DNA of 53,541 bases, counting the filler, from Bipalium vagum (taxonomy: Eukaryota), in assembly GCA_037834085.1 (NCBI GenBank). It is 3 parts of 3 records of this genome, joined end to end, with 100 filler letters (N's around TTAATTAATTAA, not from the genome) between each part and the next. Parts side by side here need not be neighbours in the genome. Positions count along the whole stretch, not along the records: positions 19,047 to 34,883 come from JBBMKC010143195.1; 2 more parts are not named here. One strand, written 5' to 3'. The position numbers were made by a program, and so were the translations under genes. The notes under the pieces are model-generated. The model did not search any database. It was not told the origin of the DNA and worked only from the letters and a program-made list of their open reading frames with translations. Shown piece after piece: positions 4,817 through 47,720 of this stretch; the stretch's first letter is position 1; the number at the start of each line of letters is the position of its first letter.

Positions 4817-4905
4817 AGTTAGTTCTTCTTTAATACACATTGAAAAGACGTCAGAGTTATAAAAAGTATTTATTCAAACAAAACATGATTACGTAACACG
4901 TAACT
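4817..4905 (-). repeat. 5' LTR (89 bp)
   Basis: Matches 3327-3415; followed on the minus strand by a TGG-initiated PBS. Confidence 0.88.
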
Positions 4906-7698: not shown

Positions 7699-8887
7699 TC
7701 ACAGAAAGCTTCTTTGAAGCTCATTTTCATAAAATCGTCCGATTATTTATTTTCCATTTTTATCCATAATTGCATAAACAATTGGAGTTGTAAAATAAAT
7801 TTTATTTATTATAAAAATTTCATATGTCCATTTTGCTGTGTATCCCAATATGAAATTTAGGTTTAGATTTCAAAATTTCAGAAGTTGAAATGGAAACTTT
7901 GTGCACTTTTGGCGCTAGAGACGTAGACTCGTTTCCGAGAGGTTCCCGCGTATTTTTTTCTTTTTCATTATTTTTATTTTTAGCTTTACAGGGTGATTAC
8001 TCGCTTCTTGAGGAGAAATACTAATTGATGAATGAATTTTGTTGTTATAGAAATTTATTAAATTTGGTAAAAGATGTAACCATTTTCGATTTCTCTGTTC
8101 TTTTAAATCTTTCAATGACAACTGCTTTTCCCTCATTATCTGTTGAGTAAATTTCGATCTCATTATCATCATAAAAATCTCCAAATATTTTATTATAAAA
8201 TTCTGTTCCTTTATCAACCCAAAGTTTTCCTGGTATTCTATTAGAATCTTCAAATATTTTATCGAAAGCATTTGTAATTTATTTTCTTGATTTATTTTTT
8301 AAAGGAACAGCAAAAGCAAAACAAGTATATAAATCTATAACTGTTAGAATTATTTTATAATCTCTTTCCTTTGGGACAAATGTTAAATCTGCAGACCAAA
8401 TATCAGCTTTGTTATTAACTTTTACTTTTAAGAAATTTTTAGTTTTTCTAAATTCTTTATGAAGTTCATTAACTAATTGTATATTTTTTTCAGGAGGAAG
8501 AATTTTTATTTTTTCATATTGTTTTTCTTTAGCAAGAGTCTTTGAAGATCTTTCTAATCTTAATCCTAATCCTAAAGCTATCTTTCCTTTTTGAGTCGTC
8601 ATAGCCGCTCCAAGAGCAATTTTTACTCGCATAATTAATTTTATAATTGCTCTTTCAAGTTTTTCTCTTGGAGTTGGATTTTGAATATTGTTCATTTCAT
8701 GAATCATTTCAACATCTGCAACATGTCTTTCTTTTAAATCTGTTGACATATATTTTACATCGTGTTTCATTGCTGCTTGATCAACTCGATTTATTGGAAT
8801 TGGAGGGATATTTAATTCACCTGTTTCATTATAATTATTTGTTATTTCATTATAGTTTTCTAAGCGTTTGTCAACATTTGTTCCAGG
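7699..8887 (-). pseudogene. PLA2 (exon 2) fused in frame to a Polinton-type DDE integrase, with a premature stop and frameshifts
   Basis: PGTNVDKRL...PINRVDQAAMKHDVKY...RHVAD (PLA2 HDxxY), then ELHKEFR...IWSADL...ILTVIDLY..FAFAVPLKNK*ITNAF...LWVDKGTEFYNK...IYSTDNEGKAVVIERF; W..LLP.....YNNKIHSSI..SP; GYTAKWTYEIF...FYENELQ. Confidence 0.85.
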
Positions 8888-9213
8888 TAGAACATCTTAA
8901 ATATTTCTATTCAAGCTGGACTATATCTTAAGCTATCATTGAAATTGATTAGATTTCTCAAGACCACCTCCGTTTAGTCTCTAAACCTTCTCCATATTCT
9001 TATCAAAATGAACATAGGAACCTGGCTGTGGATTGTCCAATTCTTGATCGTAATTACTTTCGAGATCAATCATTACCTGAGAGCCTACAAAAGATTTCTT
9101 AATTGAAGTAGTAGAAATATTTTGTGGAGTTTCCCGCAATTTGAAGGTGTTGCATTTTTTAAGTTTAAAAAACACTAGCAGACTTCTATGAAAAGTCCAC
9201 TCGAGCTCAATTG
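8888..9213 (-). ncRNA. Group I self-splicing intron (IC1-like), 326 nt, no homing endonuclease, partly degenerate
   Basis: Minus strand: P AAATTGCGGGAAA (9142-9130); Q AATCCACAGCC (9034-9024); R GTTTAGAGACTAAA (8986-8973); S AAGATATAGTCC (8929-8918). P3 CACCTTC/GGAGGTG; P7 GAGACTA/TAGTCC; P9 CTTGAATA-GAAA-TATTTAAG. The 5' exon ends in U, with IGS GCTCG. Removal restores the reading frame HNFTG|PGTN. Confidence 0.9.
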
Positions 9214-13900: not shown

Positions 13901-16884
13901 TGGCATGGTAAGAATTTACTAAACATTATAAATTATAATTATTAATTATCACTTATTATATATTGTAAAAATTTGAAGTATAAAATTAAAATTGATAAAG
14001 AAAATCAGAATTCAATTTAGTGCGACAATTAATTATGGTCAACAAAAATTTTGAATTATATAAACAAATTAAATTTAGTTAAATTACAACTTAATTTAAA
14101 TAATACGATGCTGTTCAAATGAGTTCTTATATCTTTTACTTTCATCAATTTTATGAAAATTTAATTAGTTTAAAAATAATCAAGATTTCTTGATTTTACA
14201 AGGTGCGGCAGTTAATATGTGGCGCACTGTATAATCACTGGAATTTAATAGATATCAATAGTAAGTAATTCAAATATTCTTAATACTCTTAATAATTCTA
14301 AATACTCTTAATATTGTGTTAACATTTGGTTTCAGTGGTTCAACTAAACATATTTGATAAAGGACGAATATGTAGAATGCTAGAAACCGGATTGACTATT
14401 CGTGAAGTTGGGGAAAAATGAATTTGTCTACAAGAACTGTAGAAAATGGTGGACTCAGTACAGAGATCAAGGAAATTGTGATCGCCAAAATGGATCTGGA
14501 AGACCAAAAATATCAGGTGCAGACAGGATGCCAATTTGATATTGAAGGTTAAGAGAAACAGGTTCAAATCAACGACACATATGGTCAGAGAATGGAAGAT
14601 AGAAAATGATGTCAAATGCTCAAATGAGACAGTCAGGCGCAGGATTATTATGGTAGGATATCGTTCGTATCGCGCAGTTGTGAGAATTCCACTGACTCTT
14701 ACACATCGAAAAAATCGTTTAGCCTGGGCAAAGGAACATCTAATAGAATGGAGTGATGAACAATGGAAATCTGTATTATGGACAGATGAATCCAGCTTCT
14801 CGCTAGATTTCAACGATGGTAGAATACAAGTCAGGCGTTTGAAAAACGAAAGATTTGCTGACTGCTGTATTAAACATCATGATCGGTATGGCGGTGGAAG
14901 CCTCATGATCTGGTGTGGCATATCGTGGGAGGGTGGAACGACCGCAGTTATTATTGATGGTTCATTAACTGCTGCTCAGTATCTGAATGAAATTGTTAAC
15001 CAGCACATCATTCCAAATATTGCTGAACACAATCTTATGTTGCAGCAAGATAATGCTAGGCCTCACACTGCTAAAATAGTGACTGATGCTTTGCATTCCT
15101 CAAATGTTCAAGTTCTTCCATGGCTTGCACAATCTCCTGATATGTCACCTATCGAACATGCTTGGGATGATCTTGGGCGACGTGTCAGAGAAAATTATGA
15201 CCAGACTGCCACTACTACAGCAGAAATGGCAAGCAGATTAAAAGAACAGTGGCAGCAAATTCCACAACATAATTTTCAAAATTTGATTGCAAGCATGATG
15301 ATGATGATGATTACATGAATGTAGTAGCAAACGGGGATATCTTCACTTGTGTAATGATTAATAAAATTATTTTACAGAAATCTTATTTTTCATGTATGTA
15401 GTACTTTTTTGTGGAGGATTATATTATTATTATTCTTTTTGATTTGTTTTGGGTCTCACCATATGCAGACTAATAAACCTATCTAAATAGTTTTTTTGAG
15501 AACGTAATAATTTACTCTTGTGATTTAGTGTACGTCATTTAATTCTTGCTGATCCATGGGGTTTTAGCAAGCATGAAATGAGAAAAGATTCGATTAGAAG
15601 AAGTTTATTGGCCCGTATGATAATTGGATTTGGAAATTTATTTAATCCTCTGGCAATGGTTCGGTTTGTTGGTCCTCTTGGACCAAGTCTTATTAAAAAA
15701 GCCAGACCAGATTTAGGGATTTATTTTAAAGGTGATGAAAATGTAAATTATTTTTTTATGGTATAAAACTGAACTTTTTTTTAGGAAGACAATTCAGTGG
15801 AACCAGATGATTTATTCAATTATATATATCACTGTAATGCCCAATATCCGAGGTTTTATTTTTCTGTTATCGATTGACATAGTGCTGAAACAGGATATTT
15901 TAGTGGAGAGATGGCTTTCAGAAGTTTGCATTTCAATGTCGGCTGGGCTTATAATCCAATGCTTGATAGGGTTCATTCATTGGATAAATCTGTTCCAATT
16001 ACTTTTATTTATGGCGAACATTCTTGGATGGATAAGTGGCCGGCTTTATACTTTTTAAAGGAGCGACAAGATTCTTACGTAGATTTGCAAGTATGATTAT
16101 TGGCTTAATTATCTTATGATATTTATTTATTTAGTTGAAAGATAATTATTATTACCTTGGTTATCACATTCATGCTTATCTGCAACTAATATTATTATTA
16201 ATTTATTTTTTCAAAATAGTATGTATAATTGTAAAGTTTTTTGTAAAACAGTTCGTATATAACTGATAAATCTATTTTATTCATATTATTTCTTAAATCT
16301 CTTTTTGAAAACAATAAAAATTGATGATTCCCAATATGATCTCTAAATATATATGGATTTTTTTTAATAACTTCTGAAAATCAAAAAATCTAAGGGTTGA
16401 TTTAATTTTAATACTAAAATATAATAAATTTTGAAATCTTTTCAGAATTTATAGGTTTTTTAAATATTTTTACTCACTTCTACTGTATTTACATTTTTAA
16501 TTTTGATTCAATTTTTTCATTGGATAATCTTTATATTTTTTAATATTTACTTTCAATTTCAATATTTCAATTTTTTCAATATTTATTTTATTTCTTATTT
16601 ATTATAATTTTTTATTTTAAATTTTATTTCTTCATCTTTTTTAAAATTATTTTTTCACTGTTTAATAAAATTTTTAATTGATTGTGATTTTTAACTAAAA
16701 TTGAACTTTGTTCTTCTAGGTTATTCCGGAGTGTGGTCACCATATTTATGTTCAAGATTCGACAACTTTTAACCAGACAGTTAATCAGATTTGTGATAAA
16801 GTAGATACTAACTCTGATATTGCGGAAAGTGCAGAGAGAGATAGTAAATACGAAATTTGGTTTCAAAAGTATTTTAAACCTTAG
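10970..16884 (+). CDS. ABHD4: ABHD4/ABHD5-family alpha/beta hydrolase, ABHD4-like ((lyso)-N-acylphosphatidylethanolamine lipase-like). Exons 10970-10995, 11041-11135, 11182-11578, 15529-15742, 15785-15852, 15904-16090, 16720-16884
   Basis: The spliced GT-AG exons keep frame. Motifs: LHGLGAGIGLW, AIDLLGFGFSSR, LLGHSLGGY (nucleophile Ser, versus Asn in vertebrate ABHD5), HLILADPWGF, YHCNAQYPSGE, ITFIYGEHSW, GHHIY. Exon 1 is less certain. Confidence 0.9.
11736..12132. mobile_element. MITE in ABHD4 intron 3 (possibly piggyBac-type)
   Basis: ~40-bp imperfect TIRs taatcctatgctttggtggcgcaaaaataggtcaaaatttt / aaaatttgacctactttggcgccactaaagtttaggatta; TTAA at the right end, GTAA at the left. Confidence 0.7.
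13022..13079 (+). pseudogene. tRNA-Ala-derived sequence lacking the anticodon arm
   Basis: Acceptor stem GGGGATG/TATCTCC with G3:U70; D arm TAGATCAGCGGTCAGAGC; T arm CCGGG-TTCGAAT-CCCGG. The anticodon stem-loop is absent; TTTT lies just downstream. Confidence 0.75.
13400..14229 (-). mobile_element. Truncated Tc1-like element (5' TIR, HTH, first catalytic D)
   Basis: TIR TA|CAGTGCGCCACATATTAACTG on the minus strand at 14229; MSDIEKGMIKAYHE HTH; WKQVIWSDEKKFNLD in another frame. Confidence 0.75.
14340..15420 (+). mobile_element. Tc1 (DD34E) transposase, disrupted at the N-terminus; intact core ORF 14536-15318
   Basis: W.SVLWTDES, GGGSLMIWCGI, QQDNARPH and SPDMSPIEHAW, with exactly 34 residues between D and E. 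TIR-like end gtacttttttgtggaggattata. Confidence 0.92.
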
Positions 16885-19789: not shown

Positions 19790-20375
19790 TGTGATCATTA
19801 TTTCTTTTGATGTTGTGTATAATTTGATATAATCCCAAGTTGATAATTTTGGTGTAAAAATATATATATTGTAAAATCGTTCTTGACTAATCTGTTTTAA
19901 AAAAAATAATAAATAATAATAAAATAATAATTAAGTAATAATAAATAATGATTAAGGAGAATATAAAATATCATAGTAAATAATGTATAATATTAGTATT
20001 ATTTATGTGTAAGTGCAGATTAATATATATTATTAAAGTTTATAATATTTATTTATTTATTAAAGTAAAATATTGAAAAATTAAGAAAATTTATAATAAA
20101 GTAACATTAAGTTACTAATAATAGAACATAGGTAAGAATTTTTATATTGGGAAATAAGAAAATGGTAAAAATAGAAAAAAGAAGGATAGCAGAATTATAT
20201 TAGGGAAAAGAAAGTTACTGATTATAGAAAAGAAGGTAAAAAGAACATTATAAAAGAAAACAAAAATTACAAGAAGACAGAAACGAAAAAATAATTTAGA
20301 TCTGACAAGTACAGTTCATTATCAGTTAAAGCACGACAGAAAATTTAAATCAAAGCCTACAGTTCGTGACATTCT
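19790..20375 (+). repeat. Dispersed AT-rich repeat, homologous to ~33960-34600 (inverted)
   Basis: Shared blocks, e.g. ttactaataatagaa...aagaaaatggtaaaaatagaaaaaagaagga.a.cagaat.atat.taggga and atcaa(a)gcctaca. Confidence 0.65.
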
Positions 20376-20379
20376 AATT

Positions 20380-20830
20380 TTCCAGAATTGGAAAGATAAT
20401 TATATAATTGGTTTCTGCAACAACGATCTATGAAATAAATCGTAACCAATGATATGCTCAAAGTGAAAACCATGGATAGACATATATAGACATCTAAGTC
20501 TTCCTGTTACATTATTACTCGTGGATAATGCAACTTGTCATCAAACATTAATGTCAGTGACAGAACATGAAGATTTATACTTTCCGCCCAATATGACACT
20601 TTATTTACAACCTTTTGATCAATATGTCATCAAATCATTTAAATGTTGTTTTCAGAAGCATCTTCTGAAAACACTAGGATATAGAAAAGAATATAAACAC
20701 GTTTCACATAGCAGCATAAATCTTAAAAATGTTGCATACATGGCAGTGGAATCGTGGAATGAAGTTCCTGAAATTGTTATAGAGAATGCTTTTAAGCATT
20801 TATATTCATCTAATATTACATTTTTATTGG
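20380..20830 (+). mobile_element. pogo/Tigger (CENP-B HTH + DDE_1) transposase fragment
   Basis: ELER*LYNWFLQQR...VTNDMLK; LLLVDNATCH, FPPNMT..LQPFDQ.VIKSFK, SWNEV....IENAF. Confidence 0.8.
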
Positions 20831-20834
20831 ATTT

Positions 20835-22452
20835 ACCAAAAAGATGAATTCGGCAAGGAATTTGTAGTGGCATATGGTTCACATGCAATGAGCAAACATG
20901 AAGTTGGATATTGCATCACTCACAAGGAATTACTGGCGATGTATTACTTTTGTAATCATTTCAGGCACTGTTTGTACTGAAAGCGATTTACGTTAAGGTC
21001 GGACCATAAAGCTATTGCTTTTATGATGGTTTCAAAGAAACCAATAACTCCACAATTTCAGAATTGGATAAACTTTTTGAGTGGATTGCATATAAAATTC
21101 GAATACAGACGTGGTAGTGAACACAACAACGCCGATTCAATGTCAAGAACAAGATTTAATCAATGCATTCAATGTCAAATGAGACATTAGGACGCAAAGA
21201 CATCTAAAAATCCAGTAAGATCAATCAATGTTGAACAACCATGATGAATGTGTTTCAAATAATTATAATGACAGCTCAAAGATAAACCCGCTTGATGGTA
21301 AAAAACGTGGATCCCGGCGAACAAACAAAAAGAATTCATCATGTCGGCTCATAAAATGCTGACACACGCTGGTGCAGAGAAAGTAATTTCATATCTGTGT
21401 CAAAATTTTGATATGCAACGCATGTGGGAATGTGTTAGAGAGGTTATTGACGGTTGTGAGGACTGCAAAAGAACCAAAACCATGTCGATAAAAATAAAAG
21501 AACAAACAAGAGAAATTTGAAAAAATATTTTTGATGTGTGTGGACCCTTTGCAGTGACCAGAGTTGAAAAGAGGTATATTTTAGGTATTATTGATCATTT
21601 CAGCCGATACATAAAACTAATGCCAATTGTAAGACAAGACGAGCAAACTATATGTAAAGCCTTAAAAGAAAAGTGGATTTTGATATTTGGAGCTCCAAAA
21701 GAAATAAACGTTGACAGTGGAAGGAGTTTTCTGTCAGCACAAATGAAGACGCTTGCAAGCCATGTCAAAGCAACTCTATGAGTATCAAGTCCTTACCATC
21801 AAAACAGCAACGGAATGATAGAGAGACAATTCAGGACAATAAGAGAGATGCTGATGGCGTCTCAAAAGTCAAGAAAAGGTGAAACCTGGGCCTCAATACT
21901 TCCAGATATCGAATTTACTATAAATGCTACGGTGCAGAAGGCAACAGGTAGAAGTCCAGCGGAAATTATATTCGAAAAGAAAATATTTCGTGATGAGTGG
22001 TATGGCAAAGATAACACATATTCAGATGATCAATCAACAGCGGCAGAAAAAACAAAAAGGATTTTCGATATTGGAGAAAAAGTATTGATAAAAACTGAAA
22101 ATAGAAGAAAAATGGATGATCGTTTTTTGGGACCATTCACAGTGATAGAAAAAATACATCCAAGGAGATATAAAATCCGAGATGAGCTAGGTCGAACTCT
22201 GGAGCATAATGTGGAGAAGATGCGCAAACTTTTATCGAGCGGGGATGTTATATAATAATTTAAAGTATTTGTTTATATAAATTAGTTTTGATAAATAAAC
22301 AGTTTTTAAAAAGTAGTTTAGTGTTTTGCATTTAATGAATAATTTAGGAGAAGAATCAATAATCAACCTATCAATTATTATTAAAATTTTCGATAAAAAG
22401 ATGATTTTTTAATCGTTTAATTGGGGGTTCATGATGCTCTCTCAATATTACA
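20835..22452 (+). mobile_element. Gypsy 3' fragment: RNase H-integrase pseudogene, PPT and probable 3' LTR (from 22246)
   Basis: VVAYGSH...YCITHKELLA; DVCGPF, IIDHFSRY, FGAPKEINVDSG, NGMIERQFRT, GPF motif. GAGCGGGGA is followed by TGTTATAT; possible LTR end ATATTACA at 22452. Confidence 0.85.
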
Positions 22453-22529: not shown

Positions 22530-23063
22530 TCACCAATGGTGCTGATAATATATGTATTGCTCAAATTCAATCATATGCTTTCCAATTGGTATATTATTTA
22601 GGGTTATGTTTGTGCTATTTTTATACAATATGCCACATGATTTTTTATGAGTATAGGGTGAATATATAGTGCATACTATTTTTTCGAGTAAATGTGCTGT
22701 GTATTTCCAACTTCTACTGTCTGAAAAAATTGTAATGGGTAATTGGAGGTTTTGGAATTTAACCTGATGATAAATGAGGCAATGTTTATTTTGGGAGATA
22801 TCGGTAATAGTAATGTTAATGTAATATTGATCAAATTTGTCTAAATATCTTAGTAGGATTGTTTGTGAGCCTGGATGTAAGGGTGTTGATGACAATTGAG
22901 TGGTTTTTGTTATGACAGATGTATTAATATCGGTGGATGTCATGGGTTCTACTAGAATAGCAATAGTTCGGAAAAGTGTAAATATAGCAATATTGGTGCG
23001 ATAACCTGTCCATTTAAAGGATTTTACTTGTATACAGCATAGTAATAAGAGTGTGAAAGACAA
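22530..23063 (-). CDS. Post-integrase ORF with signal-peptide-like N-terminus (env position), unknown family
   Basis: SFTLLLLCCIQVKS hydrophobic leader, NxT/S sequons (NIT, NST), several Cys; lies immediately after the integrase C-terminus. Confidence 0.4.
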   Translation of the reverse strand: MSFTLLLLCCIQVKSFKWTGYRTNIAIFTLFRTIAILVEPMTSTDINTSVITKTTQLSSTPLHPGSQTILLRYLDKFDQYYINITITDISQNKHCLIYHQVKFQNLQLPITIFSDSRSWKYTAHLLEKIVCTIYSPYTHKKSCGILYKNSTNITLNNIPIGKHMIEFEQYIYYQHHW

Positions 23064-23199
23064 AAGTTTATTTGAACGTAAGTTGTATCGAGGAGAAGGT
23101 GATGTGTCGATTTGTGGTTTTTTGGCTTTATAAATGTTATTAGATGTGGTCAGTTGATCAATATTTTCAATAATATTGTCATTTGCTTTCTTACATCGG

Positions 23200-26100
23200 T
23201 TTATGAGTATTAATTTTGCATCTTTTAATGGTTTTCGGGGATCTCTTAAAAGAAAATTACAGCCAAGAATCCTTTCGACAATGAAAGGTCCTTTAAATGT
23301 CCGGGTAAATTTTGGGGATTGTCCTTTTTTTAACGCTTGGATTTTCTACCATCACTCTATCTCCTATATTAATATTGGGATTTTAAACTTTTTTATCATA
23401 ATTTTCTTTCATAGCTTCCTGATTATATTTGATGGATAAACCAGCTTTGCTCCATGCCTCTTGCATTCTCTTTTTCATGATTGTAACATAATCGGGCTCC
23501 TACTCATCGGTTTTTGAAAAATAAGGTCAATTGACAAATTAGAGTTTCTTAGATACATTAAGTAAAAAGGGGTAAAGCCTGTTCCTATTTTAATGGCATT
23601 TCGATAGGCGAAAAGGCATGATGGAATATGAATATCCCAATCATTTTGCTTATTGTTTACGTATGAGGCTATCATGTTAGTTAAAGTATAATTAAATCTC
23701 TCTACTAAGCCATCAGTTTGTGGGTGATAAGGGGTGGTATTTAATTTTAATATGTTAAAATAAGTGTTAATAGAGGCTAATAACTCGCTCATATCTTCTT
23801 AGTATTCCATACCGGAATATGATTTGTTCAACAAAAATTTTGGATATTGTATCTGCTTTGTGGTTTGGCATGGGAAATGCCTCTGGCCATTTAGTAAGAT
23901 AGTCGCTCATAACTAGGATGTAAACATTTCCTGAAACGGTTTGAGGAATTGGTCATACTATGTCCATGGCTATCATTTCCATGGGAGCAGAGGGTACTGG
24001 CATAGGTTTCAGTGGTGCTATAAATTTTCTACCTGTATTCCTACGTGCTTGGCATATTTTGCACGTAATACACCATTGTTTAATATCTTTGATCATATTC
24101 AGTCAGTAGTGCTTTTGGCTTATACGGGAACGGATTTTACGATTTGATAAATGTCCACGGATTGTTCCATCATGATATTGTACTAATACTGACTCTCGCA
24201 AACTTTCTGGTACAAAATAACTGAATTTAGATGTTCTTTATATTTTAATAATCCTTCATCCCAATTTGACTTAGTAAGCATACTTCAGGCATTCTGGATA
24301 GTGCGTCTGCATTTGCATTCGCCTTTCCTTTTCGGTAAATGATTTTATAATTGTATTCTGTATTTTAAGTGACCATCATATAAGGCGGAATGATGTGTCT
24401 CTGTGCTTTTCTAAATAAGCCAAGGGATTATGGTTAGTATATACAATAAATTCTCGATCCCATAAATGAGTTCGGAATTTTGTAACGCCAAATATGATTG
24501 CTAGGCATTCCAATTCTATTACAGCATAATGTTTTTCATGGGGTTTAAGACTTCTGCTAGCATAGGCGATTGCATAATATCTATTCCTAATACTCCACCA
24601 ATAGCAGTCCGCTAGCATCACACATTAATTCAAATTGTCTTTTGGGATCAGGGTAGCGTAAGATTGGTGATGACACTAAACATTGTTTTAATTTATCAAA
24701 AACTGTTTGATGATCAGGAGTCCATTTAAAAGTCTGTTCCTTTTTTAATAGCTTATTTAGGGGTGCTGCGATTTGAGCGAAGTTTTTAACAAATCTTCGG
24801 TAATAGTTGGCTAAACCGAGAAATATTTAAACTTGCTTGGGCGTTTTGGGAACACTTGCATTTTTTACTTTTTCTATTATTTCAGGTCAGGTTCTATGCC
24901 ATTTTATGATATTATGTGCCCTATATATTTTACGGAATTTTTTCCCCATTCACATTTTGTGGGTTTAATTTTGAAACCAGCTACTTTAATTCATTTTAAT
25001 ACTTCCTCAATGTCCTTCATATGGGTGTCGAAGTCAGGGGAAAATACAATGATGTCGTCTATGTATACTATGGCATGTGCAATGTCCATGAGCATAAGGT
25101 TCATAGCTCTTTGAAAAGTGGCGGGTGCTCCTGTAAGATCAAATGGCATCTTATTGAATTCATATACACCATTTTCTGTTATGAATGCTGTAGCTTCTCG
25201 TGACTGTTCGGCTACTTTGATGTTCATGTATCCTTATTGTAAATCAATTTTAGTAAACAGCTTAGCTGTACCCAATTTGTCGAACATGTCTTCGATTAAT
25301 GGGAGTGGATCTTTCACAGTAACTTCATTTAGTTTTCGGTAGTCTATGCACACTCTCCATTCTCCTCCTTTTTTTTTACAATTATCATCGGTGAAGACCA
25401 TGGTGATGAGCTTGGGCTGATAATGCCAGTTTTTAGCCAGTGAGCTATTTGCTTAACCGCCTCTGTTTTTAAAGTGTGTGGGGTGCGGTAAGCTCGTTGT
25501 TTAATGGGTTGTAGATTTGTGATGCGTATTTCATGTTGCAGAATGTTGACTGTGCCGACGTCAAATTCATGTTTCGCAAATGCGTCTTTATAAATTCTTA
25601 ATAATTGTGTAAATCGTTTTTGTTGGAGATATGTTAGAGTAGTTGTAGTTACCTGAACTGGTTCGTAGACTTTCTTTGCCGGAGTTATGACATCTGTGTG
25701 TGGAACATATTCATTAATAGTTCCCACTCTCATTCCGGGGTGAATTTTTCGTGGTTTTACATCAAAATTAGCTATTCTTATGGGTATTCGGTTACGATTC
25801 ACAATGGCTAACGTGGCTTGTGTGGTGAGATTACTGTTATTAACGAATTTCTCAGATGACTCAAAGATCACTTCTTGTCCATTAGGCAAATTTGTAGCTA
25901 ATAAACATATCTGCTCGTGTCGGGCGGGTATAATGGCTTGATCTAGTACAACGGCTACATGGTCAGCATCCTTGCATCCTCGTGGGTGTACGAATTAAAA
26001 GGATTAAAGGATTAAACCTGGATTAAACCTGGGATTTTTGATAAAATATCCATGCCGATTATACATCCGAGTTCATTATTCTCCATTACTTTTAATGTGT

Positions 26101-26330
26101 GATCTATGTCGTGACCCATTATTCTAATAATGCTTCTGCATGTTCCTAATAAGGGTACTGACTTACCATCTATACCTATTACTGATATGGGTGATGTGTT
26201 TACGGCGAATTGTTCCTCTGTATTTAAAATTCGAGCGTCAATAAGAGAAGTCTGTGCGCCAGTATCTACTAGAGCCAGAACTCTGTGTTTATTTACTTTG
26301 ATTGCAATCATGGGTCGTGTTTCTTTGGTT
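23200..26330 (-). pseudogene. pol: aspartic protease, RT, RNase H, integrase (gypsy order)
   Basis: ALVDTGAQTSLI; [15 protein letters not shown]; MPFDLTGAPATFQR, VYIDDI; IAYASRSL...ELECLAI; TPYHPQTDGLVERFN; KGPF C-terminal motif. Confidence 0.95.
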
Positions 26331-26489
26331 GTGAATGAGTTTCTCACATAATATTCGTTAGGAGTTGGTGAATTATTATCATTTCTATTTACAGGGTTGA
26401 AGTTAAATTCGGAAAATATGTATATTTGATCAAACAATGATGGAACTTGTTGCATACTGATTGTGGCATTATATTCGGCTGCGGCTTGT

Positions 26490-27100
26490 AGGATTATAGT
26501 TTCTGTTAGTTGCTTATCCCGGGCCATGTCTAGCGCAGTTTGACCATATATATGTCGGTGAAATAGGTTTCCATCGGGTTTTTAAAGCAATATTTTAACT
26601 CTTTCTGTATCAACTTCATAGCGACTTGCAAGATGAAGGGGTGTTTCATCATTTAAATATTCTCTTTCATTTACATCTGCCATAAACTCATTGTCATATC
26701 CTCTGAGTTCAATCGTTAATTTTACTGATTCTACAAAATTTGATGTAGGGATGTTTGAATGTTGTTTTGATATCGTTGAAACATTTGGGGTAAGTGCTTG
26801 CATTGAACTTGTATCATTATATATCGTAAAGCATCTATATTGGTGGCAGCTAAGGCATGGTTTATGACTGATTTACCTGCTTTATCCCAATGGTCTATTT
26901 TACATCCACTAATTTGATTGTTACATTTAATGAAACATCACATGCAGGGGTTATGAGATGTGGTGTATGTCCAAAGGTATTCTCAAAATTGAGGACCCAT
27001 CTAAAAATACTTTTATAATTTCGATAATTTCGAGTGCCATTGATGAATTTCCTTTTAGAATCGCATTATGTACCCGGGTATCACCAAATTTATCTGGGAC
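26490..27100 (-). pseudogene. Ankyrin-repeat domain (IkB/cactus-like), ~5 repeats, frameshifted, directly upstream of the protease
   Basis: DKFGDTRVHNAILKG; LNFENTFGHTP; SGCKIDHWDKAGKSVINHA; ADVNEREYLNDETPLHLA...VKILL; YGQTALDMA (in frame with the protease ORF 26012-26527). Confidence 0.75.
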
Positions 27101-27568
27101 TGTGAAAAAAGCTGGTATTTTCGAGCCATTTCATTAAATGTTTCTTCCTTTGATAAACCGAATGTGAAATAATGAGCTATTTATCATGCCAAATTTTATT
27201 GAAATATAAATATTTTTTCGGCTTCATTCTAGGGGCTTTTCAGCCCAACCATGTATTTCTAAACGCATCATGACATCATTTTCTTGAATGGACTTTCGAA
27301 TTTTAAATAGCTCAGATTGGGGATATAATGTAGATCGGTTTGGCATTTTGTCTAGGCTGTTGGTTTGGGGTGTTTGGTATTCTATTGTCTCTATTATAGA
27401 GGGTGTTTTTGCTTTCTTGGAAATATTGGTTTTAAATTTATTGTAAACTTGTGAGGTGGTACTGTAGATGTTTTTTGGTTCCTCTATATTCCAATTGGGC
27501 CAGTAATCTTTGAGTTCTGTGATTGCGGGTTTTGGCAGTGTTGATTCATTGTCATCATTGCTATTATT

Positions 27569-29503
27569 TTACTTCCTATGGTGATGATGTCGGTGCTTTG
27601 AAGTTCTGGTAATGGGTTTGTACCTATAATGGCATTGCTTTCTCAATAAATCAATATGTTTTCGATGCCTTTTATGCAATTCTCGGTTGGCTATTGGTGG
27701 AAATAAGGCTAAGATTAATTTCCAAAAACATCCTAGTGCGTAATGTAAGCTGCGACCTGACATAAAACTGCTACCGATTCCTGTTAGTATTTGACAGATG
27801 AAATATATACCTGAAAATCCCGCAACCCATGTACCGAATGTATTAAATCCTCCACAAATATACGTGATGACATTCTTTGCTGCATGAATGTAATGGTGTG
27901 TTCCGAATAATAGGTTATAATCCATCTTTCCTTGCTGGGCATTGTAAATTTTCGTAATCATTTCTATTATTCCTCTCTCTTGGGCCTGAGGAAAGAGTAT
28001 TACTTTCCTGGCTTGGTCAATGTCTTCAGGGGAGTATATTCCTCCTTCATTAATAGATGGTAGTGGTTTAAATTCGACTATATTTTGCATCTCTATTGCT
28101 TCTATTGTTTGTACTTTTTCTCTTGGTGGCTTCCTTTCTGGTATACATTGCTCGCCAATTTTATATAGAGGGGATATGATGGGACCACACATGGCTATTC
28201 GAGGCTGTAAGTGTACTTCTAGTATTATTCGAGTTAATGGGGATACAAACCGTAATTTCTTTTGATAAATAAATCACTAGTGCATTCGTTATATTTTGCC
28301 AATGGAACATTTACTTTCTCGCATTTGTACGTTTACAATGCTTCACTCATTTTACGACCGAAAACGCCATCTTGTACTAATAAGGGTGATGTCAGTTCGG
28401 TGTTATTGATGGCTAGGAGTAATCGATTTTTTAATATTTCACGTCTTAATTTGCAGTCGTTTAAAATGGTCTCTTGATATACATCCTTTAATTGTGTTTG
28501 TAAATCGTGATAAAGATAGTCTATCTTATTATTTAAGTACATATTTAGCTTAATATCTGAACTATCTTTTGGCATTGGTTTTGATAATCTATCTTTAGTG
28601 ACTTATATCCCTTTATAATTGGTTTCATATACTGCTACTCCACACTTGACTATCTGTTTCTTAATAATCAATCGGATTAGTTCCTTTTTATCCGTTGTTA
28701 TCAGAACAATGGGTGTTTTTGCTTCATCTATGGCAGAACTTCGTCTAGGGGCTGTTCGGTAATTTTCTGGAATTTTAGTATATTCATTTTGGGTGGGATT
28801 AAGTCGTCCACCTGTTATTTCTTGAAAAATTGTAAATTTCAGACTTCTCAGGTTACAGTGGTCTTTATTGTTATCATATAGTAGTGCTGCTTCTTGTGTA
28901 ACATAATATCCCTTTTTTAGATTGCAACTTTGTTTAAATAATAATTGTCCGGTAATAACATCGAATACACCTTCATACGTAAGTAGTTCAACTTGATAGT
29001 TCTCTATATCTACTACTTCATTAACGTCTTGTCCAGATACTTTCTTCTGTTCCCCTTCACATTTTCCATCATAATTTATTGATCCCCTTGTATTTGCCTT
29101 GTTATCATATTTTTCTTCATTGCTATGGCTATTTTGTCGTCTATTCGAATTTTATTGAACTGGAAGGCATTTCGCATGTTTTGGCTGTTACACGTACTTC
29201 TCGGGGTAATAATTTTGGCGGATATTATTGAGTTATGGTTATGCATACCACAATAATACCGTAAGGTTAAAAGTGTCAACCTTACCTCTGTACTCCTTCA
29301 CTTGGCTACGAAAATAATCGCTGATACATAGTATGCTGATGTTTTGGCGGTTAAGTTATTTGGTGAAAGGTAAGTGCATTCATGTGTATCTATGAGCGAA
29401 TATATTTTTCCAAATTTTGTGTTAGCGCAATCATAAGCTATCAATGCTCTCCTGGTTTAAACAGTGAAAACATCAACATCATCATCATCCTCCATTGCAT
29501 CAT
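27569..29503 (-). pseudogene. Chuvirus-like (class III, gB-related) envelope glycoprotein, disrupted
   Basis: Leader MMQWRMMMMLMFSL then ALIAYDC...YSLIDTHEC; YYCGMHNHNS; CKLRREILKNRLLLA; GGIYSPEDI....ILFP; TM region FNTFGTWVAGFSGIYF...LHYALG. Confidence 0.8.
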
Positions 29504-30302
29504 GTTTGATTTACTGCTGAATTAGCCGTAGAGTTATTGTTTATTGTATTTAGCGTTTGCCATCCTATCATGTTTTCAAGAAAGGGTTCTATTATTTCTT
29601 TTATATTTTTTGTAGTGTCTCTAATTACCGTTTGTATTTTCTCTGGGGATTGTTTAATGCTTTGCATTGCCTGTTGAATTAGGACTGTGAGTCCAGTTAA
29701 ACATGTTCCACGATTAGGTTTATTTGTAATGAGGTCTTGTATTTGGGATAAATTCATGTCATTAAGACTTTTTATTTTAGGAATTAGATTTTTTATTTTA
29801 TTTATTAAATTGTAATTTTCACTATCATTTGGGCAGTTATCAGTTTGTAATGCATGAATTATAGTGGTGATTTTGTGCAGTAGCTCATTTGGAATGTTTT
29901 CATTATCGAAATCACTATTTACTTGTTCTGCCAATTTTTGCGTCTGTTTAAATATAAGAGTTTGTTTACTTGATTTAATGTATCCGTTTTTGTCAACTGC
30001 TTAATGTAGGGTATAATGTCCGATACAGGGTTTGGTTTTTTAATTTTGATTGCTGGTTTCTGAGTTTCTATTTCAGGACCCGAAACTATATCGGTTTTTA
30101 TAGTTTGGTCTCATGCTTGTGATGTTATCGGCTTATCTCTAGGTGGGATTGTAACGTATTCTGGGGTGTTAAGCTCATTGCTATCTTCTGATATTTGTGC
30201 ATCATCTATATCTATGGGCCAATATTGTGGATTCATTCGAACTATGGGTTGATAGTCTTGTTTTAAAATTTCCTGTAATACTACATCAGTTTCATCTATT
30301 TC

Positions 30303-31241
30303 CTACCATACCTTATTGATTATTTCGTGTTTTTCCTGCTGTATTGGTATTTTCTCCTCTGATTCTATAGGAACTTCACAATACTCTGGCTCGACCTCCT
30401 TAGGGGGAATTTGTGCTTCTTTTATGGTATCTGTCAGATCTATTACTTCGGTTATCGTTGTCTGTTTTTGAGTATCAGGATAATGTACCTGAATTATATT
30501 CGTTTTACGAGGTTTACAACCACAATCTATTAAGTGCTCGTCATCATCTATTAGTTTACCGAATATTTCTAATAGTGGAATTGTAGGGAGTTGCAATTTT
30601 TCTGCTGCTTTTTTGCGTAATTTTTGTACTTTGCTATTCAGGGGCATTATATACGTTTCACTAGTGTTATTGGGCATTTGTAGCTGAATCGTTATTGTTT
30701 TATATTCGTTATTACTTTGTCTCAATGCTTGACCATATTTTCTTTAGATGCTTTCTAGCTCTTTTTGATAAACCGCTGAAAAGGTTGCCCAATTTCGAAT
30801 TTTATCATAATTTAGCTTGGATTTAATCATTTCTTGCGTTAGTTTAACGGGGATATTATTCATGTATTTTTTATCCTGTTCACTTACTTCTGATATACTG
30901 CATATCATTTCTTCATTAATAACCTCTTCTGGCTGAAAACTTATCTCAATTACGTTGTACCTACCTGGTATAATGCCAGATTCTATTAAACTATTATTAA
31001 TATTAAGTTTTGTTTTATAATAATGGAGGTTAACTGGTCTTTTTAGGCTCTCTTGTATATCAGTTAATATTTCTTGCACCATGGTTTTTGTGGTGGCTAC
31101 GTTTCGTACAGTTAAATTATCAGGATATTTGTAATATATGGTGAAAATCGTTTCTATCTCTGACCATTCCTTTCCTATTTTTCGTAATAGCTGAAGCTCT
31201 ATTGGGGAACTTACTCTATGAAATCGTAAGAAATGTTTCAC
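30303..31241 (-). pseudogene. Two tandem ubiquitin-like (beta-grasp) domain candidates downstream of gag
   Basis: ITIQLQMPNN..ETYIMPLNSKVQKLRKKAAEKLQLP...LEIFGKLIDDDEHLIDCGC....IIQV and FTIYYKYP....TMVQEILTDIQE....LHYYKTKLNINNSLIESGI...NVIEI follow the ubiquitin hydrophobic pattern. Confidence 0.55.
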
Positions 31242-31489
31242 TTCTTCGATGTTATCAATTGATGTTTCCCCTGTTATCTATTTTTGTGCTATCTCGTTAG
31301 CGTTTCTTGCCTCTATCGCCATATCAAAAATAATAGTGATGTGGTTAGATTTTTCTTGTTCGGGTTCACCTAATCTTTCTACTTTCGCATATTCCTCCCT
31401 GAGCAGTGATTCTAATCTCTCAATGTGTGACATACTTGCCTCAATTGTGTCATTAATTTCCTCATTATAGTTTACAATATTTTTTTAGG

Positions 31490-32735
31490 CGTTAATGCGG
31501 GACAACTTCTCTGTAAGTGTCTAAATTTTCCGCAAATAAAACATTTTATCTTTCCCTCAACATTCACTTGTTGACGTTGGGGTGAATTAAAATTTATGCC
31601 TTGGGATACATTTATACTTTGAGGTGAATTAAAAGTTATACTCCTACACACTTCTTTTACATGTCCTCTTTTCCCACATTGTAAACATAATACATTTTGC
31701 GCTCTGCATTCAGTTGCATTATGATTTCTTCGTGCACATTTAGTACATTGTTTATCAAATTGATTATTTGCACTATTGAAATCAAATTGTTTATTTCCGG
31801 AATTATTATATTCAAATGGCTTATTTCCATAATTATTGTTGTATTAAAATGCTTTATTATTATACTCAAATTGCTTATTAATTATTCTTAATTATTATTA
31901 TTAAACTCAAAGGGTTTATTTGCAAAATTATTCCCACTATTATAATTATTTCTATTTGGGTATTGATTCACTGGGGCTCTCGTTTGATTTCGTTGGCTAC
32001 CTCTATCTAAAACATTATAAGGCTTAGTGAATTATTCATTAAATCGGACTCTTTTGTCATTCGGACATTCTCTGGCTCCATGACCCATTTCATTACATTT
32101 ATAACATTGTATTTGACTATTATTATTTGTTTTAATAGGTGATTTTGGCCTTAATCCGAGGGACTGTGGACCTTTATTTATTACATTTATTGTTTTCATT
32201 TCTACTGCAGTTTCGGCTAATTTTGCTTTTTGAATTAATTGCTCAAATGCTTCATGTCTATATGATAGCTGCTTTAATTTCATACTTTAAACCTGACCAC
32301 CATTGGTCTTTTACAATAACTTTAGTGTTTTCGTCCCACTTATCTTGTAAACCGAAAGCTGTTTGGGCTACGGTTCTTAAATTATGGGTATATTCTGATA
32401 ATGTTTCATTTAATTTTTGCTTTAAACCATAAGATTGTTGCCTAATTAAATGACCTGTCAATTGTGAAAATTTTTTCCTCTAATGCTGCTTTAACTGATG
32501 CCCAATTGTAATCTTTACCTTTGGCTACCATATCTAAATATGCGTCTCTTGCTGCACCTTTTAAATAAATGGGAAGTCTGTTCATCATTACTTTTTCATT
32601 AAAACCATATACACGCATTATTGTATAATAGTTTGATAAGAAATCAGGTAATTCAGCTAGATTTCCTTTGTAGGTATCCATTTTAATATAACCAGTGTAC
32701 GTACTACTATTGTCTTCCTGTTCACTTTCAGTCAT
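31490..32735 (-). pseudogene. gag with four CCHC zinc knuckles
   Basis: Capsid-like LPIYLKGAARDAY...W..VK..L and LKQK.NETLSEY...L. Knuckles CYKCNEMGHGAREC, CTKCARRNHNATEC, CLQCGKRGH, CFICGKFRHLQRSC. Confidence 0.85.
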
Positions 32736-33015
32736 TTTAGTTAATTTATTTTTATTACTTTTTTCTGTAAAAAGAGGGCGAGTTTGAGAACGAGTGATGA
32801 TAGGTCTTTCAACAATTAGACTTTGCTTTTTGGACTTTTTTACTTTTACTTTTTTAATTTGACTATCAGATTCGGAATTAATAGTTGTTACGTTTGGAAA
32901 ATTATTATTATTATCTTCAGAATCAAAATTATTATTACCAGTATCAAGATTATTATTATTATTAGCCGTTTTATTTTTATATGCTCCGAACGTTTACCAC
33001 GTTGGGCTCACCAAA

Positions 33016-33959: not shown

Positions 33960-34600
33960 ATGATGTAGGCTTGATTAGCTTTTATGGAGGTCTGCTTGAT
34001 TTCTATGATGTATCTGATCACGACTGAACCGGTAAAAAATTATTTTGGTTTTGGTGTAGACTATAACTTGTTTAGCGGAGGTCTGCTCTCTGTTGACTAA
34101 TCGAGTTTTATCTAGTTAAAATTTTATTTTGTTTTCTGATTGTCTTATAATTTCTGCTTTCTTTTATATAATTCTTTTTTCCTTTTTATTTATAATTAGT
34201 AAATTTCTCTCCCTAAATATGATTCTGTTGTCCTTCTTTTTTTTTCTATTTTTACCATTTTCTTATAAAAATTCTTTCTTAATTTCTATTATTAGTAAGT
34301 TATTGTTGCACTAATATAAATTTTCTTAAAATACAGATAAATAAATAAATAAATAAATATAATTACAATTAGTACAGATTAATAATAATTACTATATATT
34401 ATTCAACAAAGTATTATTTTATACCTTATCTTATTTCGAAATTTCATTTTTTTAATTTATTATTTATTACTGCTTAATTATTAATCAGTCAAAATCGACT
34501 TACAATGAATATATTTTTGGATTATTAACCATTTCAAATAAAATTAAAAGAACAATACAATATCAAATAATACCAAGTATCATATACATATATAAAAGGA
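33960..34600 (-). repeat. Dispersed AT-rich repeat, second copy (inverted relative to 19790-20375)
   Basis: Reverse complement aligns by eye with ~19.8-20.4 kb. Confidence 0.6.
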
Positions 34601-35744: not shown

Positions 35745-37135
35745 CAGGGTGTTTAATATGTATGTTAACACACTTTCATTCTAAATATTTTTACAAACAA
35801 TAAAGATATAAAGTAGGTAACACTTTTTTATTTGAATAACATATATTAAAAAACAAATACAATACGTAATTATATAATTTGACGCCCGTTGATAGCTAGG
35901 CAATGGCTCAATCGAGATTGTACATTTAGACATACTCGCTGACATATTCCAGTATTTACTTCATTACAAACATGACTGATTTTATCCTTGATCTCAGCGA
36001 TTGTATGAGATTTGTCTCTGTAAAAATTTTGTTTCACATATCCCCACAAGAAGTCTGGCGGAGTTATATCGGGCGAATCCAGCGATCTGGAAACTTTTTG
36101 TCTAGCCAGTTCCTGCCTTTTTGCGAATAGTGCGCAGGTGCCCCGTCGTGTTGTAATTACTTACGACCTCTTGTTATTCTAGGCCAATAAAACTTTTCCA
36201 GCATCTCCAGGTATGACTCACTAGTTACCGTATGATCTTATGATCTCTCAAGTATTTTCATTATTTCATCTTTGTGAATTCCTTTCTTCCTGAAAAATGT
36301 CGTCCACAAACACTTCTATGGTGCTGTTAGAGCTAAATATTTTCCCAGTTAGAGTTATATAAATTATATAATGGAAAGGGCAGATGGCCCAATGATACCT
36401 TGTAAACTTAAACTACACTACACAATTATCCCGACCCTGGAGTTTCTAACAGGAATTGTTACTTTAGAGTTAGAGTAGGCCCAATAGCAGCAATTGTGGC
36501 GGTTAACAAATCCATTGAGCATGACCTAACTCTCGTCTGAGCATATTATCGTGTTGATCAAGGAAAAGTCATTTTGGAATTGTACCAACATTGTCTGACA
36601 AAATTTCATTCTTCGGTCAACGTCGTCATCGCTGATCTCAATTACGGTTGACGGCTTAAATGAATGAAAGTCTGCTTCATTAATTGCCTTATAATAACTT
36701 CTTACAGTCATGTCAAGTTCACTAGCACCCTGTCGAACTGACAAATTGCTAGATTCTTCATCCAATTTTTCACTCTTTGAATTGTTTTCACTGTTAATAC
36801 GGAACGAGGTCGACCGGATTTTACTTGGTCATGAACACTTCCAGTCTTCTTAAACTTTTCCACAATTTTTTTAATTGTTTGGTTACCTGGTGGTGGAGTG
36901 ATAAACTTCTTTTTCCAATGCCTAATTACTTCTTCAAAATTATCAAATTTGGAGTTCCATACAACAATTTGAATTCTTTCTTCCATCGAAAAACGTCAAG
37001 CTATTTTATTTTAAAATTAACTAAATGGATTAAATAAAACTTTTAATCCATATAAACAAATAAACAACAAATATATTTATTTTTTAACTTGTAATTTAAA
37101 AATAAAGTATTTTAACATACATTATAAACACCCTG
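35745..37135 (-). mobile_element. Full-length but decayed Tc1/mariner-superfamily element (DDxD, rosa/maT-like)
   Basis: TIRs TA|CAGGGTGTTTAATATGTATGTTAA and TTAACATACATTATAAACACCCTG|TA; KFKKTGSVHD..KSGRPRSV, ICSDES, QHDGAPAHY, SPDITPPDFLWG. Confidence 0.88.
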
Positions 37136-41115: not shown

Positions 41116-42042
41116 TATATGATAACCCATGCCATGTTCACTGAAGAAATGAAAGAGGAAATTCGAATACCAATCTAATACTGAGAATTAAAACTTCTGC
41201 TAGGTAAAGCAAAATTTCACTGAAATTACAGCCACGCATTGACGATAACGGACTTGGGTTATAAAATGCTTTGATATAGACATTTCATTCTAATTCAACC
41301 ATCAGCTTCGACGTAGTATTCCACGTTACATATCCCAACAGCCAGAATAAAGTCATTGTCTCTACTATCATCCATCGGTGAATTTAAAAAAATAATCGTG
41401 GTTTATTATTAATAAATAAAATGTATTTCACTGTTTAAACAAATTATGTAATAAACCTATAATTTAATTGCTTAATTTTATATTTATGCCCCTCCCCAAC
41501 CTTTAAATGTCAAATCTTGGCATAAAGAATAAACACTTGCTTATCACTGTCTTACCGTAATATATAATATATATCACTAATAATTAAATATTTATAGAAA
41601 ACAATCCACCAAATTGAACAAAGCTTAATTTGGCCATAAAATAACGAAAACCAGAAATAATTGATCAAGTTGAGATGGACTGAAAAAATGATAATGATGA
41701 TTTAAGAAACCAAACGATTAATTTGATTTTGTGTCTGAATAATTTTTTTCGACTTAATTAAATAAATATATAAAATAAAATATTTTCAATCAATAAATTT
41801 TTAATTCCACTATTTCTCCTCTCTAAAATAATGCCTCCGTCGCTGGTGATTTGGAAATATGTAAATTTATCCATTTATACAAAGCTTTCAATGGGTGAAT
41901 TTTTTCAACGAAAAATTGGATTTCACTTTATCAATAGTTAATTAAATTAAATTAAATTTATAATATTTTTTTCAAGAGAGAATATGAGAATTTTTTTTCA
42001 GTTTCGCTTGACATGATTTTTTTAACTTTGGTCAGTTTTAGA

Positions 42043-45000
42043 ATGATTTTGGATGCCGATAATCGCGTCATTCTAAATGTTGGAGGGTTTCGACATGAAA
42101 CGTATAAAGCCACTTTGAAAAAAATTCCCGCTACGAGACTTTCCAAACTGACCGACGCACTGGCTAATTATGATCCAGTGTTGAACGAGTACTTTTTCGA
42201 TCGACATCCTGGTGTTTTTGCCCAAGTTCTCAACTACTATCGGTCTGGAAAACTCCATTATCCGACTGACGTTTGTGGTCCACTGTTTGAGGAGGAGTTA
42301 GATTTTTGGGGATTGGATTCGAACCAGGTACAATTTCGTTTATTTAATGTATTAATTAATATTTTATAATTATGTTACTTTATTGGCTTAATATAGATTA
42401 TGATATATCTAGCGATTTAACGTAAATATTTTTAATAAGATATAGATTTCCAATTTGCAGGTCAATAATATTTTTTCTTATTATTCTGAATATTTGTTTT
42501 TATATTTTTTATCACAATTTTAATATTTTTATCTATTTTGCACATAATTCCCACAATGTCTCCCAAGATTGTAAATAGACAATTTCTTTCGTTTCAACAC
42601 ACTAAACCTTTTAGTGCTTGATTTTTGGATCACATTTATCTCTCCGCCCACTTGATATAGTACTGAAACACTTTAAATCTTTATCCATTATTCGAAATCC
42701 AATTTTAGTTCAAGATAATGACGTTCCAGTTGATGTATTCTATTAGAATAATTAATTTACAATGTGATGAATTATTAGATCACAAATATCGAGAAGAGCA
42801 AGAAATTTTTGTAATTTTCATAAGCAATTGTGAAATGAAAATTATGGAAATTTTAAAAAGCTTGCTAAAAAGTATTTAGTAATGTTTAGTTCAACATATA
42901 TTTTTGAACAAACCTTTTCTTTAATGAAATGAAAGTGCAACAAGATCAATACTGAATGATTTTCATTTTGAAGCTGTGCTAAGAATAGCTATAAGTATAG
43001 AATCAGATATTAAAGAAAATGAGCTATGCATACCCTCTCAATATTTCACATTAGTTATTCTGCTAAATTTTATCGTAATTTGTTCATAATACAAGTTTCT
43101 TAACAACTAAATGGTTTTTTTCTTAACATTTTTAAATATTTTGTTCGGCCCGTAAAAATTCTTTTGTCCCTGCTTTAAACCATTTCCGTTACATTTGAAA
43201 TTTTTACTGTTTAATCTTGATCTTATAAATAACAAAATATTTATAATTTCATAGCGATATTCGCCTAATTAAAATTGTAATTATCGGTTCTATATATTTA
43301 CAAGATTACACGACATTCTCTGTCTTTCATATCACAAGTCTCTATTTTAAAGTGCTTAAAACATCTTTTACAAACATAACTTTATTATGTATGGTTGTCA
43401 AACATTTTTCAACATGTATAACTACTTTTGGCAGATTTTGTTCAAAAGAATGAATTAAAGTTTCATCCTTACTTTTAGAATGGTCTTAAAAAAACCTTTT
43501 GAAAATTCAATTATAAGACTTGTGAATATATTTATTCTAAATCAAATATAAATCTTTTAAAATAAATTAAATTTTATATTCACCTTATTAACCGGAACAT
43601 CTAAAAAATATATGCGACATTTTGAATTTGTTTTATTAATATGATAATTAAAGAAAAACCGAGTTAATTAATAAAACAAAAGTAATAATTTATTTTATTT
43701 ATTTATTTAATTTTTAAAGAGAAAGTTAAAATAAATTTTCCAAAGGCAATTGGAGCTCATCCGTTTTCTTCAATAACGAAAACGTTAATTTAATTAAAAA
43801 ATCAACTAAGTCTTGTTTTTGTTTTAAGTGGATTATGCTTTGGGAATCAATAATTATTGTACCTCTTTACTTTGTTATCAATTACCAATAGAAGTCACGA
43901 ACAACTACAATTGTCGGAGCTCATGGTAAACTAAATCGAGATAATACTTATTTATGAAATAATAGTACTCGAAAAATTAAAACGAATTTCTTTGAATTGT
44001 CTCTAATTTTATTTATTTAATTATTAAAAAAATTTATTCAAACGTTGTATATATACGCTCAATCAAGAATACTAAATTAGGAATCAAAAACACCGAAATT
44101 AAAATTTATTAAAATAATTCACAAAATAAATAATTTATATATTAATATTATATTATATTAATATATATTTCACTAGGAAACATTTTAAAAAATTTTAAAA
44201 ATAAATTTAATAAAAGATATTTTTTACCTAAAACAGAATTTTTATAAAAAGAATTTGATTTATTAAATAAAACTAATATATCAATATATTTTATAAAAAT
44301 AATAAATAATCAATATTAATGAAAATATTTCATTTCTTTTTAAAAAACCCAGAAATTCTGGAGGGAAAATTGAAATATAATTTCAATTAATTGGAATTGT
44401 AATATATAAAGATATTTTTTTAATAATAAAAGTAACAAGTGTCCACATACATTTCATAATAATATAATCACAAAATAAAAGTTTATTACGTTGTGATGAT
44501 TGATAAATGTAGTTGACAATTAAAGTAATGCTTTTTATAGATTAAATTGATTTATATTTCATTTTTTTAATTAATCAAATTTATATATAAATGAATAAAA
44601 TTATATTATTATTATAATCTATTACATAAATATATTTTATAATAAAACAAAATAAAATAATATGTATGTACAAAACAATTTCACACTGTTAACCAATACA
44701 TTTAATGCAAAATTTATTTCTATGGATATCTTTTTTAAAATCATTTTGTGTTAAGGTAGAACCATGCTGCTGGATGACATATACTCGTCACAGAAGTACA
44801 CGAGAAACTCTCCAAATTCTAGACGATGTTGACATCGATTCAGACAGATCTTGTGAAGAACGAATCTATACGAAATTTGGATTGGAAGAAGAATACCAGG
44901 AGGATATCTTGAATTGGTATCAAAAAGTCAGAGTTAAATTATGGACTGTCTTTGAAGATCCATACTCATCCACAGCTGCTAAGGTGTATAAAATTATTTC

Positions 45001-47642: not shown

Positions 47643-47720
<78 letters not shown>

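Follow-up and report, generated by a model that had tools for sequence, protein, structure and literature searches.

Planarian Burro and GYPSM1 are giant Gypsy elements that carry an in-frame internal env, as set out in the available portion of a 2019 report (PMC6431247). In that account the Burro env, with matches to mononegavirus-type fusion proteins, lies between BCL2 and protease; the Burro1 frame measures 4,873 aa within a Burro range of 4,873-5,140 aa, the element exceeds 30 kb, and copies in decay are noted in Dugesia japonica. GAG-ENV-POL elements with a gB-type env have been catalogued in flatworms, nematodes and bryozoans by Chary and Hayashi (PMC13524379), whose accessible text gives nine Platyhelminthes elements, of which the six from Schmidtea mediterranea have 1-215 copies, and describes GAG-ENV-POL elements as not monophyletic across phyla. 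The words "polyprotein" and "Burro" are absent from the main text of that paper, as are "ankyrin" and "ubiquitin" from its supplements; Burro and the GAG-ENV-POL errantiviruses appear to be the same elements under different names. BEL/Pao elements with a chuvirus-like env (Dezordi 2020, as cited in the accessible text of PMC13524379) differ from the locus described here in their carrier, which in our case is Ty3/Gypsy, and chuvirus G, which has Pfam family PF24664 and a predicted fold in common with our env, is encoded by stand-alone genes and falls on the other side of the env tree.

Here we analyzed an env-bearing element in a 53,541-nucleotide stretch of Bipalium vagum DNA, filler included (the window). 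A first-pass annotation had proposed an independent env capture in an unusual internal position; as far as the accessible portions of the two reports go, internal in-frame env (PMC6431247) and GAG-ENV-POL gB-type elements (PMC13524379) are already published, so that neither the env type nor its position is new and the window adds one diverged, dead member. We consider it highly probable that the locus is a decayed endogenous retrovirus of Ty3/Gypsy type and Burro-like make-up, probably from a flatworm, with a class III fusogen native to the gag-to-pol region and a predicted polyprotein that is threaded through the ER and cut, which retains the annotation's suggestion of a candidate invertebrate endogenous retrovirus.

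Compared by description with the accessible account of Burro (PMC6431247), the window element is Burro-like in its CCHC gag, Ubi2/SUMO-like part, BCL2-like part, env, ankyrins and, between protease and RT, a conserved domain at the position of Burro's dUTPase-like part. It differs in a coding span of ~10 kb (~3,400 codons) as opposed to 4,873-5,140 aa and in four zinc knuckles as opposed to two or three, and the MATH, BIR and midasin-like parts of Burro were not seen in the window element. Given the smaller span and the lack of MATH and BIR parts, we regard it as Burro-like and not as Burro1 itself; it is also below Burro1 in size, falls short of the intactness of the eLife list and has an RT that is not placed against a named Burro, and is therefore filed under the broader term. 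With the "ancient errantiviruses" of PMC13524379, as far as that source is accessible, it shares a Ty3/gypsy pol, an env of HSV/gB type, and a gag-env-pol order. By eye, its env has CEG, EGVFD..TG.L, L..LK...F.E..G and KCG..VY.TNY.G in common with the Schmidtea rows of the accessible supplement. Unlike those intact elements, the window copy is broken, whereas two related metagenome loci described below (L001 and L002) have intact frames.

Layout of the element and its setting

The element runs from 33013 down to 22530 on the minus strand throughout, and all of its coordinates below refer to that strand. A PBS-like motif, TGGTGAGCCCAACGTGG (32997-33013), lies two bases past an ...AACA, the likely 3' terminus of the 5' LTR (33016). 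The broken gag (31472-32993) consists of an N-terminal region, which matches the start of the L001 frame (E 8e-11), and four CCHC-type knuckles (zf-CCHC) spanning 31475-32286, upstream of env. It is followed by a coding stretch without a Pfam match (30744-31470) and by a ubiquitin/SUMO-like domain (30474-30713), which has no direct Pfam match and was recognized by ESM Atlas (PF00240 and PF11976, 0.90-0.92) and by its likeness to the related polyprotein P0001 (33%, E 5e-11) and to L001 (E 4e-10). A second ubiquitin-like domain considered at 30747-31277 was rejected (E 0.27). A BCL2-like helical domain (29551-29748) is supported indirectly, by a profile of three relatives (E 5.5e-7 among 437 window pieces); Pfam Bcl-2 does not match this window piece itself and is weak in the relatives (P0018, E 9.6e-4; P0002, E 0.2).

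Downstream of env, a predicted cytoplasmic tail or linker continues in the env frame (27224-27568), where relative P0005 is 31% identical over 149 aa in a match that spans the stop, and ankyrin repeats broken across several frames occupy 26489-27121 (Ank_2 E 4.5e-5, under the curated cut-off; tblastn with P0038 and P0056). An aspartic protease with a DTGA motif (26015-26332; RVP E 1.6e-8) precedes a putatively dUTPase-like domain (25365-25988) that shows 29-35% identity to the equivalent slot in relatives and no Pfam dUTPase match. Broken reverse transcriptase and RNase H (24290-25377; RVT_1, RT_RNaseH) and a broken integrase (23139-24255; 50-63% to the relatives' integrase, rve_3 weak) follow, and an in-frame extension past the integrase (22530-23100) holds RYNLRS, a signal-like stretch and a beta-rich domain. 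The pol order of protease, RT, RNase H and integrase is that of Ty3/Gypsy (Metaviridae), and the window RT is nearest to Ty3 RT among solved structures (E 4.5e-36; next group 1.5e-19), a set without any BEL/Pao RT, which together bear out the Ty3/Gypsy carrier named in the first-pass annotation. The location of env between gag and protease on one strand also stands, though env borders on neither of them, a point that the annotation missed: the neighbors of env are the ubiquitin-like and BCL2-like parts before it and the tail and ankyrin repeats after it.

Stops or frame changes occur in every part of the element, and the window copy is dead and able to make none of the predicted products. We found no direct repeat of LTR size in the window, no 3' LTR, LTR pair or internal LTR, and no tRNA gene. 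Inverted copies at 19925-20297 and 34119-34483 were considered as an LTR pair and ruled out by their opposite orientation; they are 73% identical over 384 bases and may be a piece of some related LTR or else a repeat of the host genome. The 3' end of the element abuts the 3' end of an opposite-strand Gypsy element: this unrelated element is present as its 3' half (20837-22255, +; RNase H, integrase and an SH3-like end), with a purine tract at 22237-22245 followed by TG, and lies tail to tail with the env-bearing element, which is truncated there.

Other features of the window were observed in their own right. The host DNA is AT-rich and comes from an animal. A Shaw potassium channel gene (41956-53224, +) groups with Macrostomum (SH-aLRT 97) on a long branch, with one flatworm among the 16 references, and its first exon is too conserved for placement; an alpha/beta-hydrolase exon (11133-11582, +) is ABHD4/5-like by eye. 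Between long inverted repeats (2279-2886 and 6543-7301, 76-77%) lies a fragment of a Gypsy integrase (3426-4415, -), with a direct repeat of 86 bases on either side of it (3332-3415 and 4820-4905). A segment at 7915-8896 (-) gives a parvovirus-type phospholipase A2-like match (PF08398, E 1.9e-5) and then an integrase-like start, which we take to resemble a Polinton/adintovirus-type fragment. Remnants of DNA transposons lie at 14482-15318 (+) and 35870-36995 (-), both Tc1/mariner-like by eye, and at 20467-20847 (+), a DDE_1 match.

The envelope segment and its predicted fold

The broken env (27569-29456) is of the chuvirus/gB (class III) type. All of the motifs that the first-pass annotation had named are present on the minus strand: LIAYDC at 29444-29427, CGMHNHNS at 29252-29229, CKLRREILKNRLLLA at 28455-28411 and GIYSPEDIDQARKVILFP at 28042-27989. 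Within 27569-29503, three single-frame pieces, frame-shifted relative to one another, match Pfam PF24664 (Monjiviricetes_fusion) colinearly, and across the 653 positions of the family they cover 20-134 (E 1.9e-8), 134-404 (E 8.1e-25) and 406-609 (E 1.1e-23), each exceeding the curated cut-off. These matches substantiate the earlier class III call, and env is assigned to the Monjiviricetes-type fusion proteins, with the family settled by sequence. The frame changes three times (near 29450, 29090 and 28270), and in-frame stops fall at 29300, 28605 and 28335. Toward the C-terminus a hydrophobic stretch at ~27841-27761 reaches a Kyte-Doolittle value of just 1.3-1.4 over 19-mers, and beyond this env anchor the window has a second, mildly hydrophobic stretch. 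A word-index search for homologs of the C-terminal env piece found none among 522 candidates.

We predicted the fold of the 282-residue middle env piece with AlphaFold, entering stops as X and using an alignment with 43 relatives. The model has a mean pLDDT of 84; one half is beta-rich, and a helix of 48 residues comes after it. Searches of a viral structure library with this piece returned 17 matches at E <= 0.001, mostly to chu-like G proteins (best 2.3e-9). Against solved structures, Foldseek ranked Thogoto GP and herpesvirus gB best, with none reaching 0.001 (best E 0.09), and in VIA-align the four top ranks of 48,161 went to gB chains, with Z 5.2-4.0 and rmsd of 8-11 A, the best match having Z 5.2 and rmsd 10.3 A. 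The fold comparison suggested in the first-pass annotation was thus strong for predicted chuvirus G, while for solved herpes gB it was top-ranked yet weak. The predicted fold is consistent with solved class III proteins but is a weak match to them, because the model covers just one env piece.

Envelope origin and single-frame relatives

Among 1.84 billion representatives, the env end plus tail, ankyrin repeats and protease drew 139 matches, and the best env matches among these were long polyproteins. We scanned 19 of the matches, picked for length or rank, for domains, and observed PF24664 in 14 of the 19, a same-chain protease after env in 10 of these 14 with RT too in 4, and env after the integrase in none. 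The cluster mates P0141 (3,003 aa) and P0143 (4,844 aa) run from env through protease, RT and RNase H to integrase. The relatives' polyproteins align colinearly with the window, with identities of 25-38% in env and 46-58% in RT, and in P0005, which among the relatives with an env tail is nearest by its protease, the chain runs on past the position of the window env's stop and reaches the protease without ankyrins.

Two of 134 candidate stretches from a metagenome scan, L001 and L002, carry the same order. L001 has a single 3,703-codon frame that is colinear with the window over the start of gag, its knuckles, the ubiquitin-like part and each of the three env pieces, and then over spacer, RT, RNase H and integrase, and L002 has a single frame of at least 3,426 codons that is colinear from the ubiquitin-like part onward, its gag being cut off; Pfam detects proteases in both. 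The window ankyrin and BCL2-like pieces have no match in L001 or L002, and the accessories are therefore modular. To the question raised in the first-pass annotation, whether the order is conserved and gag-env-pol forms one ORF, these related loci answer that the order is kept in one frame. Both env-flanking junctions in the window copy are out of frame or stopped, so the single frame is seen in the relatives only.

Several side observations concern these relatives. P0001, P0004, P0009, P0141 and P0143 have more than one aspartic protease domain each, from two to several, and only one was found in the window copy. Separate downstream frames in L001 (12085-13473, +) and L002 (10617-12107, +) give weak RNase_T (DEDD exonuclease) matches (E 1.1e-3 and 1.4e-5, respectively), and L001 has an additional 222-codon frame without a match. 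P0006, an env-bearing Gypsy polyprotein of 2,627 aa, is deposited as Flavobacteriaceae; no copy was found in prokaryote genomes, and it is likely animal DNA in a bacterial bin.

The state of the junctions allows a different account within the same family, in which env was a separate frame in this lineage, reached either through stop-restart on the overlapping ATGA (29503-29500) or through a frameshift, with pol expressed apart. The stop of the BCL2-like frame does overlap the ATG of the signal-like stretch, env is closed by a stop at 27569-27571, and the gag end adjoins an A-run at a frame change. However, with dozens of breaks in the copy, decay could account for any one junction, and the relatives read through both env junctions; we consider this account improbable.

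To place the envelope among its kin we built an env tree of 39 rows, chosen by likeness to the window env (P0140 and P0144 were dropped as they have no env). The window and 11 polyprotein envs separate from 27 stand-alone glycoproteins, among them three named chuvirus G, on a branch with an SH-aLRT of 100. As the rows were picked by likeness, the tree says only that the nearest kin are retroelement-embedded. Identity of the window env is 33% to the polyprotein envs and 14-25% to the stand-alone glycoproteins, the latter measured on the middle piece. P0004, P0143 and P0141 group alike in the RT and env trees.

These data bear on the idea that a chuvirus glycoprotein cDNA, or the env of another element, was inserted secondarily into an ordinary Gypsy copy. 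Such an insertion would fit the lower number of breaks per kb in env (~3) than in pol (~6-8), a raw count that is inflated by alignment overrun and a difference that is not significant (p 0.10-0.41). Against it stand the greater nearness of env to polyprotein envs than to stand-alone glycoproteins, the colinearity of the whole element with single-frame relatives, the lack of internal repeats and a coding-strand composition (A 0.38-0.44, T 0.23-0.27) that gag, env and pol have in common and that differs from host DNA (A 0.36, T 0.38). L001 and L002 largely refute a secondary insertion, and we give it almost no credence; the earlier view that there is no nested insertion thus holds, with no LTR-size direct repeat in the window and a shared single-frame order in both loci.

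An independent capture, as put forward in the first-pass annotation and taken here as one by a Gypsy lineage unrelated to Burro with a convergent order, fares no better. Among the polyprotein envs the window env does have a long branch in basal position, the RT phylogeny that the annotation had recommended was built (10 rows) and does not resolve the window's place, and the lack of monophyly of GAG-ENV-POL elements across phyla in the accessible text of PMC13524379 would fit such a capture. Yet it is the same relatives that are matched by the ubiquitin-like part, by env, by the spacer between protease and RT, and by RT and integrase, the accessory set is Burro's by description in the accessible account (PMC6431247), and env motifs are shared by eye with the Schmidtea rows of the available supplement (PMC13524379). 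The order is common to a single-frame polyprotein family, and env groups with the 11 polyprotein envs and not with chuvirus G, which leaves an independent capture extremely unlikely. Domain order, homology, the single frame of the relatives and the breakage of the window copy are direct results; we read env as a native segment, not a nested insertion, with an order inherited within the single-frame polyprotein family.

Predicted topology and a possible second membrane protein

A Met-rich hydrophobic stretch at 29459-29503 is likely an internal env signal peptide: in relatives it stands in frame directly before AYDC, although in the window copy it and LIAYDC are in different frames. By eye, a hydrophobic stretch directly before AYDC is present in 11 of 11 relatives, 7 of which are above the hydropathy threshold, as well as in L001 and, again by eye, in L002. 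For the Burro-like polyprotein we predict that the Gag, ubiquitin-like and BCL2-like parts would remain cytosolic, that the internal signal peptide would open the env ectodomain into the ER and that signal peptidase would free the env N-terminus at (L/I)AYDC. The env anchor would then bring the chain back to the cytosol, leaving protease, RT, RNase H and integrase there to be released by the element's own protease, and a second signal and anchor past the integrase would yield a second membrane protein. This topology would fail if the mild second stretch after the env anchor crosses the membrane. In the L002 frame, residues ~1585-1770 include a further signal-like stretch with its anchor, placed between protease domains, which would make a third membrane module in one polyprotein, and as signal and anchor come as a pair the parity of crossings is kept.

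Past the integrase, a signal-like stretch, ectodomain, anchor and short tail, together a predicted type I membrane protein, were observed in all six polyproteins examined (P0004, P0006, P0038, P0081, P0141 and P0143) and in L001 and L002. The tails of those six polyproteins contain a pattern resembling the FN3 motif L.P.T.Y; in L001 and L002 the strict FN3-like pattern does not occur within the final 700 residues. The window (22530-23100) keeps the signal-like stretch and beta-rich part, with no anchor before the stop. ESM Atlas gave this piece an FN3 score of 0.82, under the reliable range and hence a lead only, and its single-sequence fold (pLDDT 36) was unusable. Pairwise comparison with the tails of the six relatives gave no significant link (z <= 1.6), the piece was not recovered from 438 window frames by a profile built on the FN3-like repeats in the relatives, and a word-index search found no homologs of it among 16 candidates. 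A full-text literature search, mostly without subscription papers, did not find the post-integrase membrane protein; the original Burro reports, supplements and Repbase may describe it.

The post-integrase protein is possibly the envelope partner of the gB-type fusogen. We regard as rather unlikely a Burro-like two-protein envelope made from one polyprotein, in which a gB-type fusogen is joined by an FN3-like type I attachment partner and both are threaded by signals and anchors as in flaviviruses.

As a predicted trimer, the class III fusogen would allow particles to move from cell to cell, and the BCL2-like, ubiquitin-like and ankyrin parts may target the cell-death and ubiquitin pathways of the host, as is likewise suggested in the accessible text of PMC6431247. 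Planarian Burro RNA rises after PIWI knock-down, according to the available portion of PMC8532177. If the two-protein envelope is true, fusogen and attachment protein would be divided in a herpes-like way within a retroelement, both of them cut from a single polyprotein, and this would be testable in planarians.
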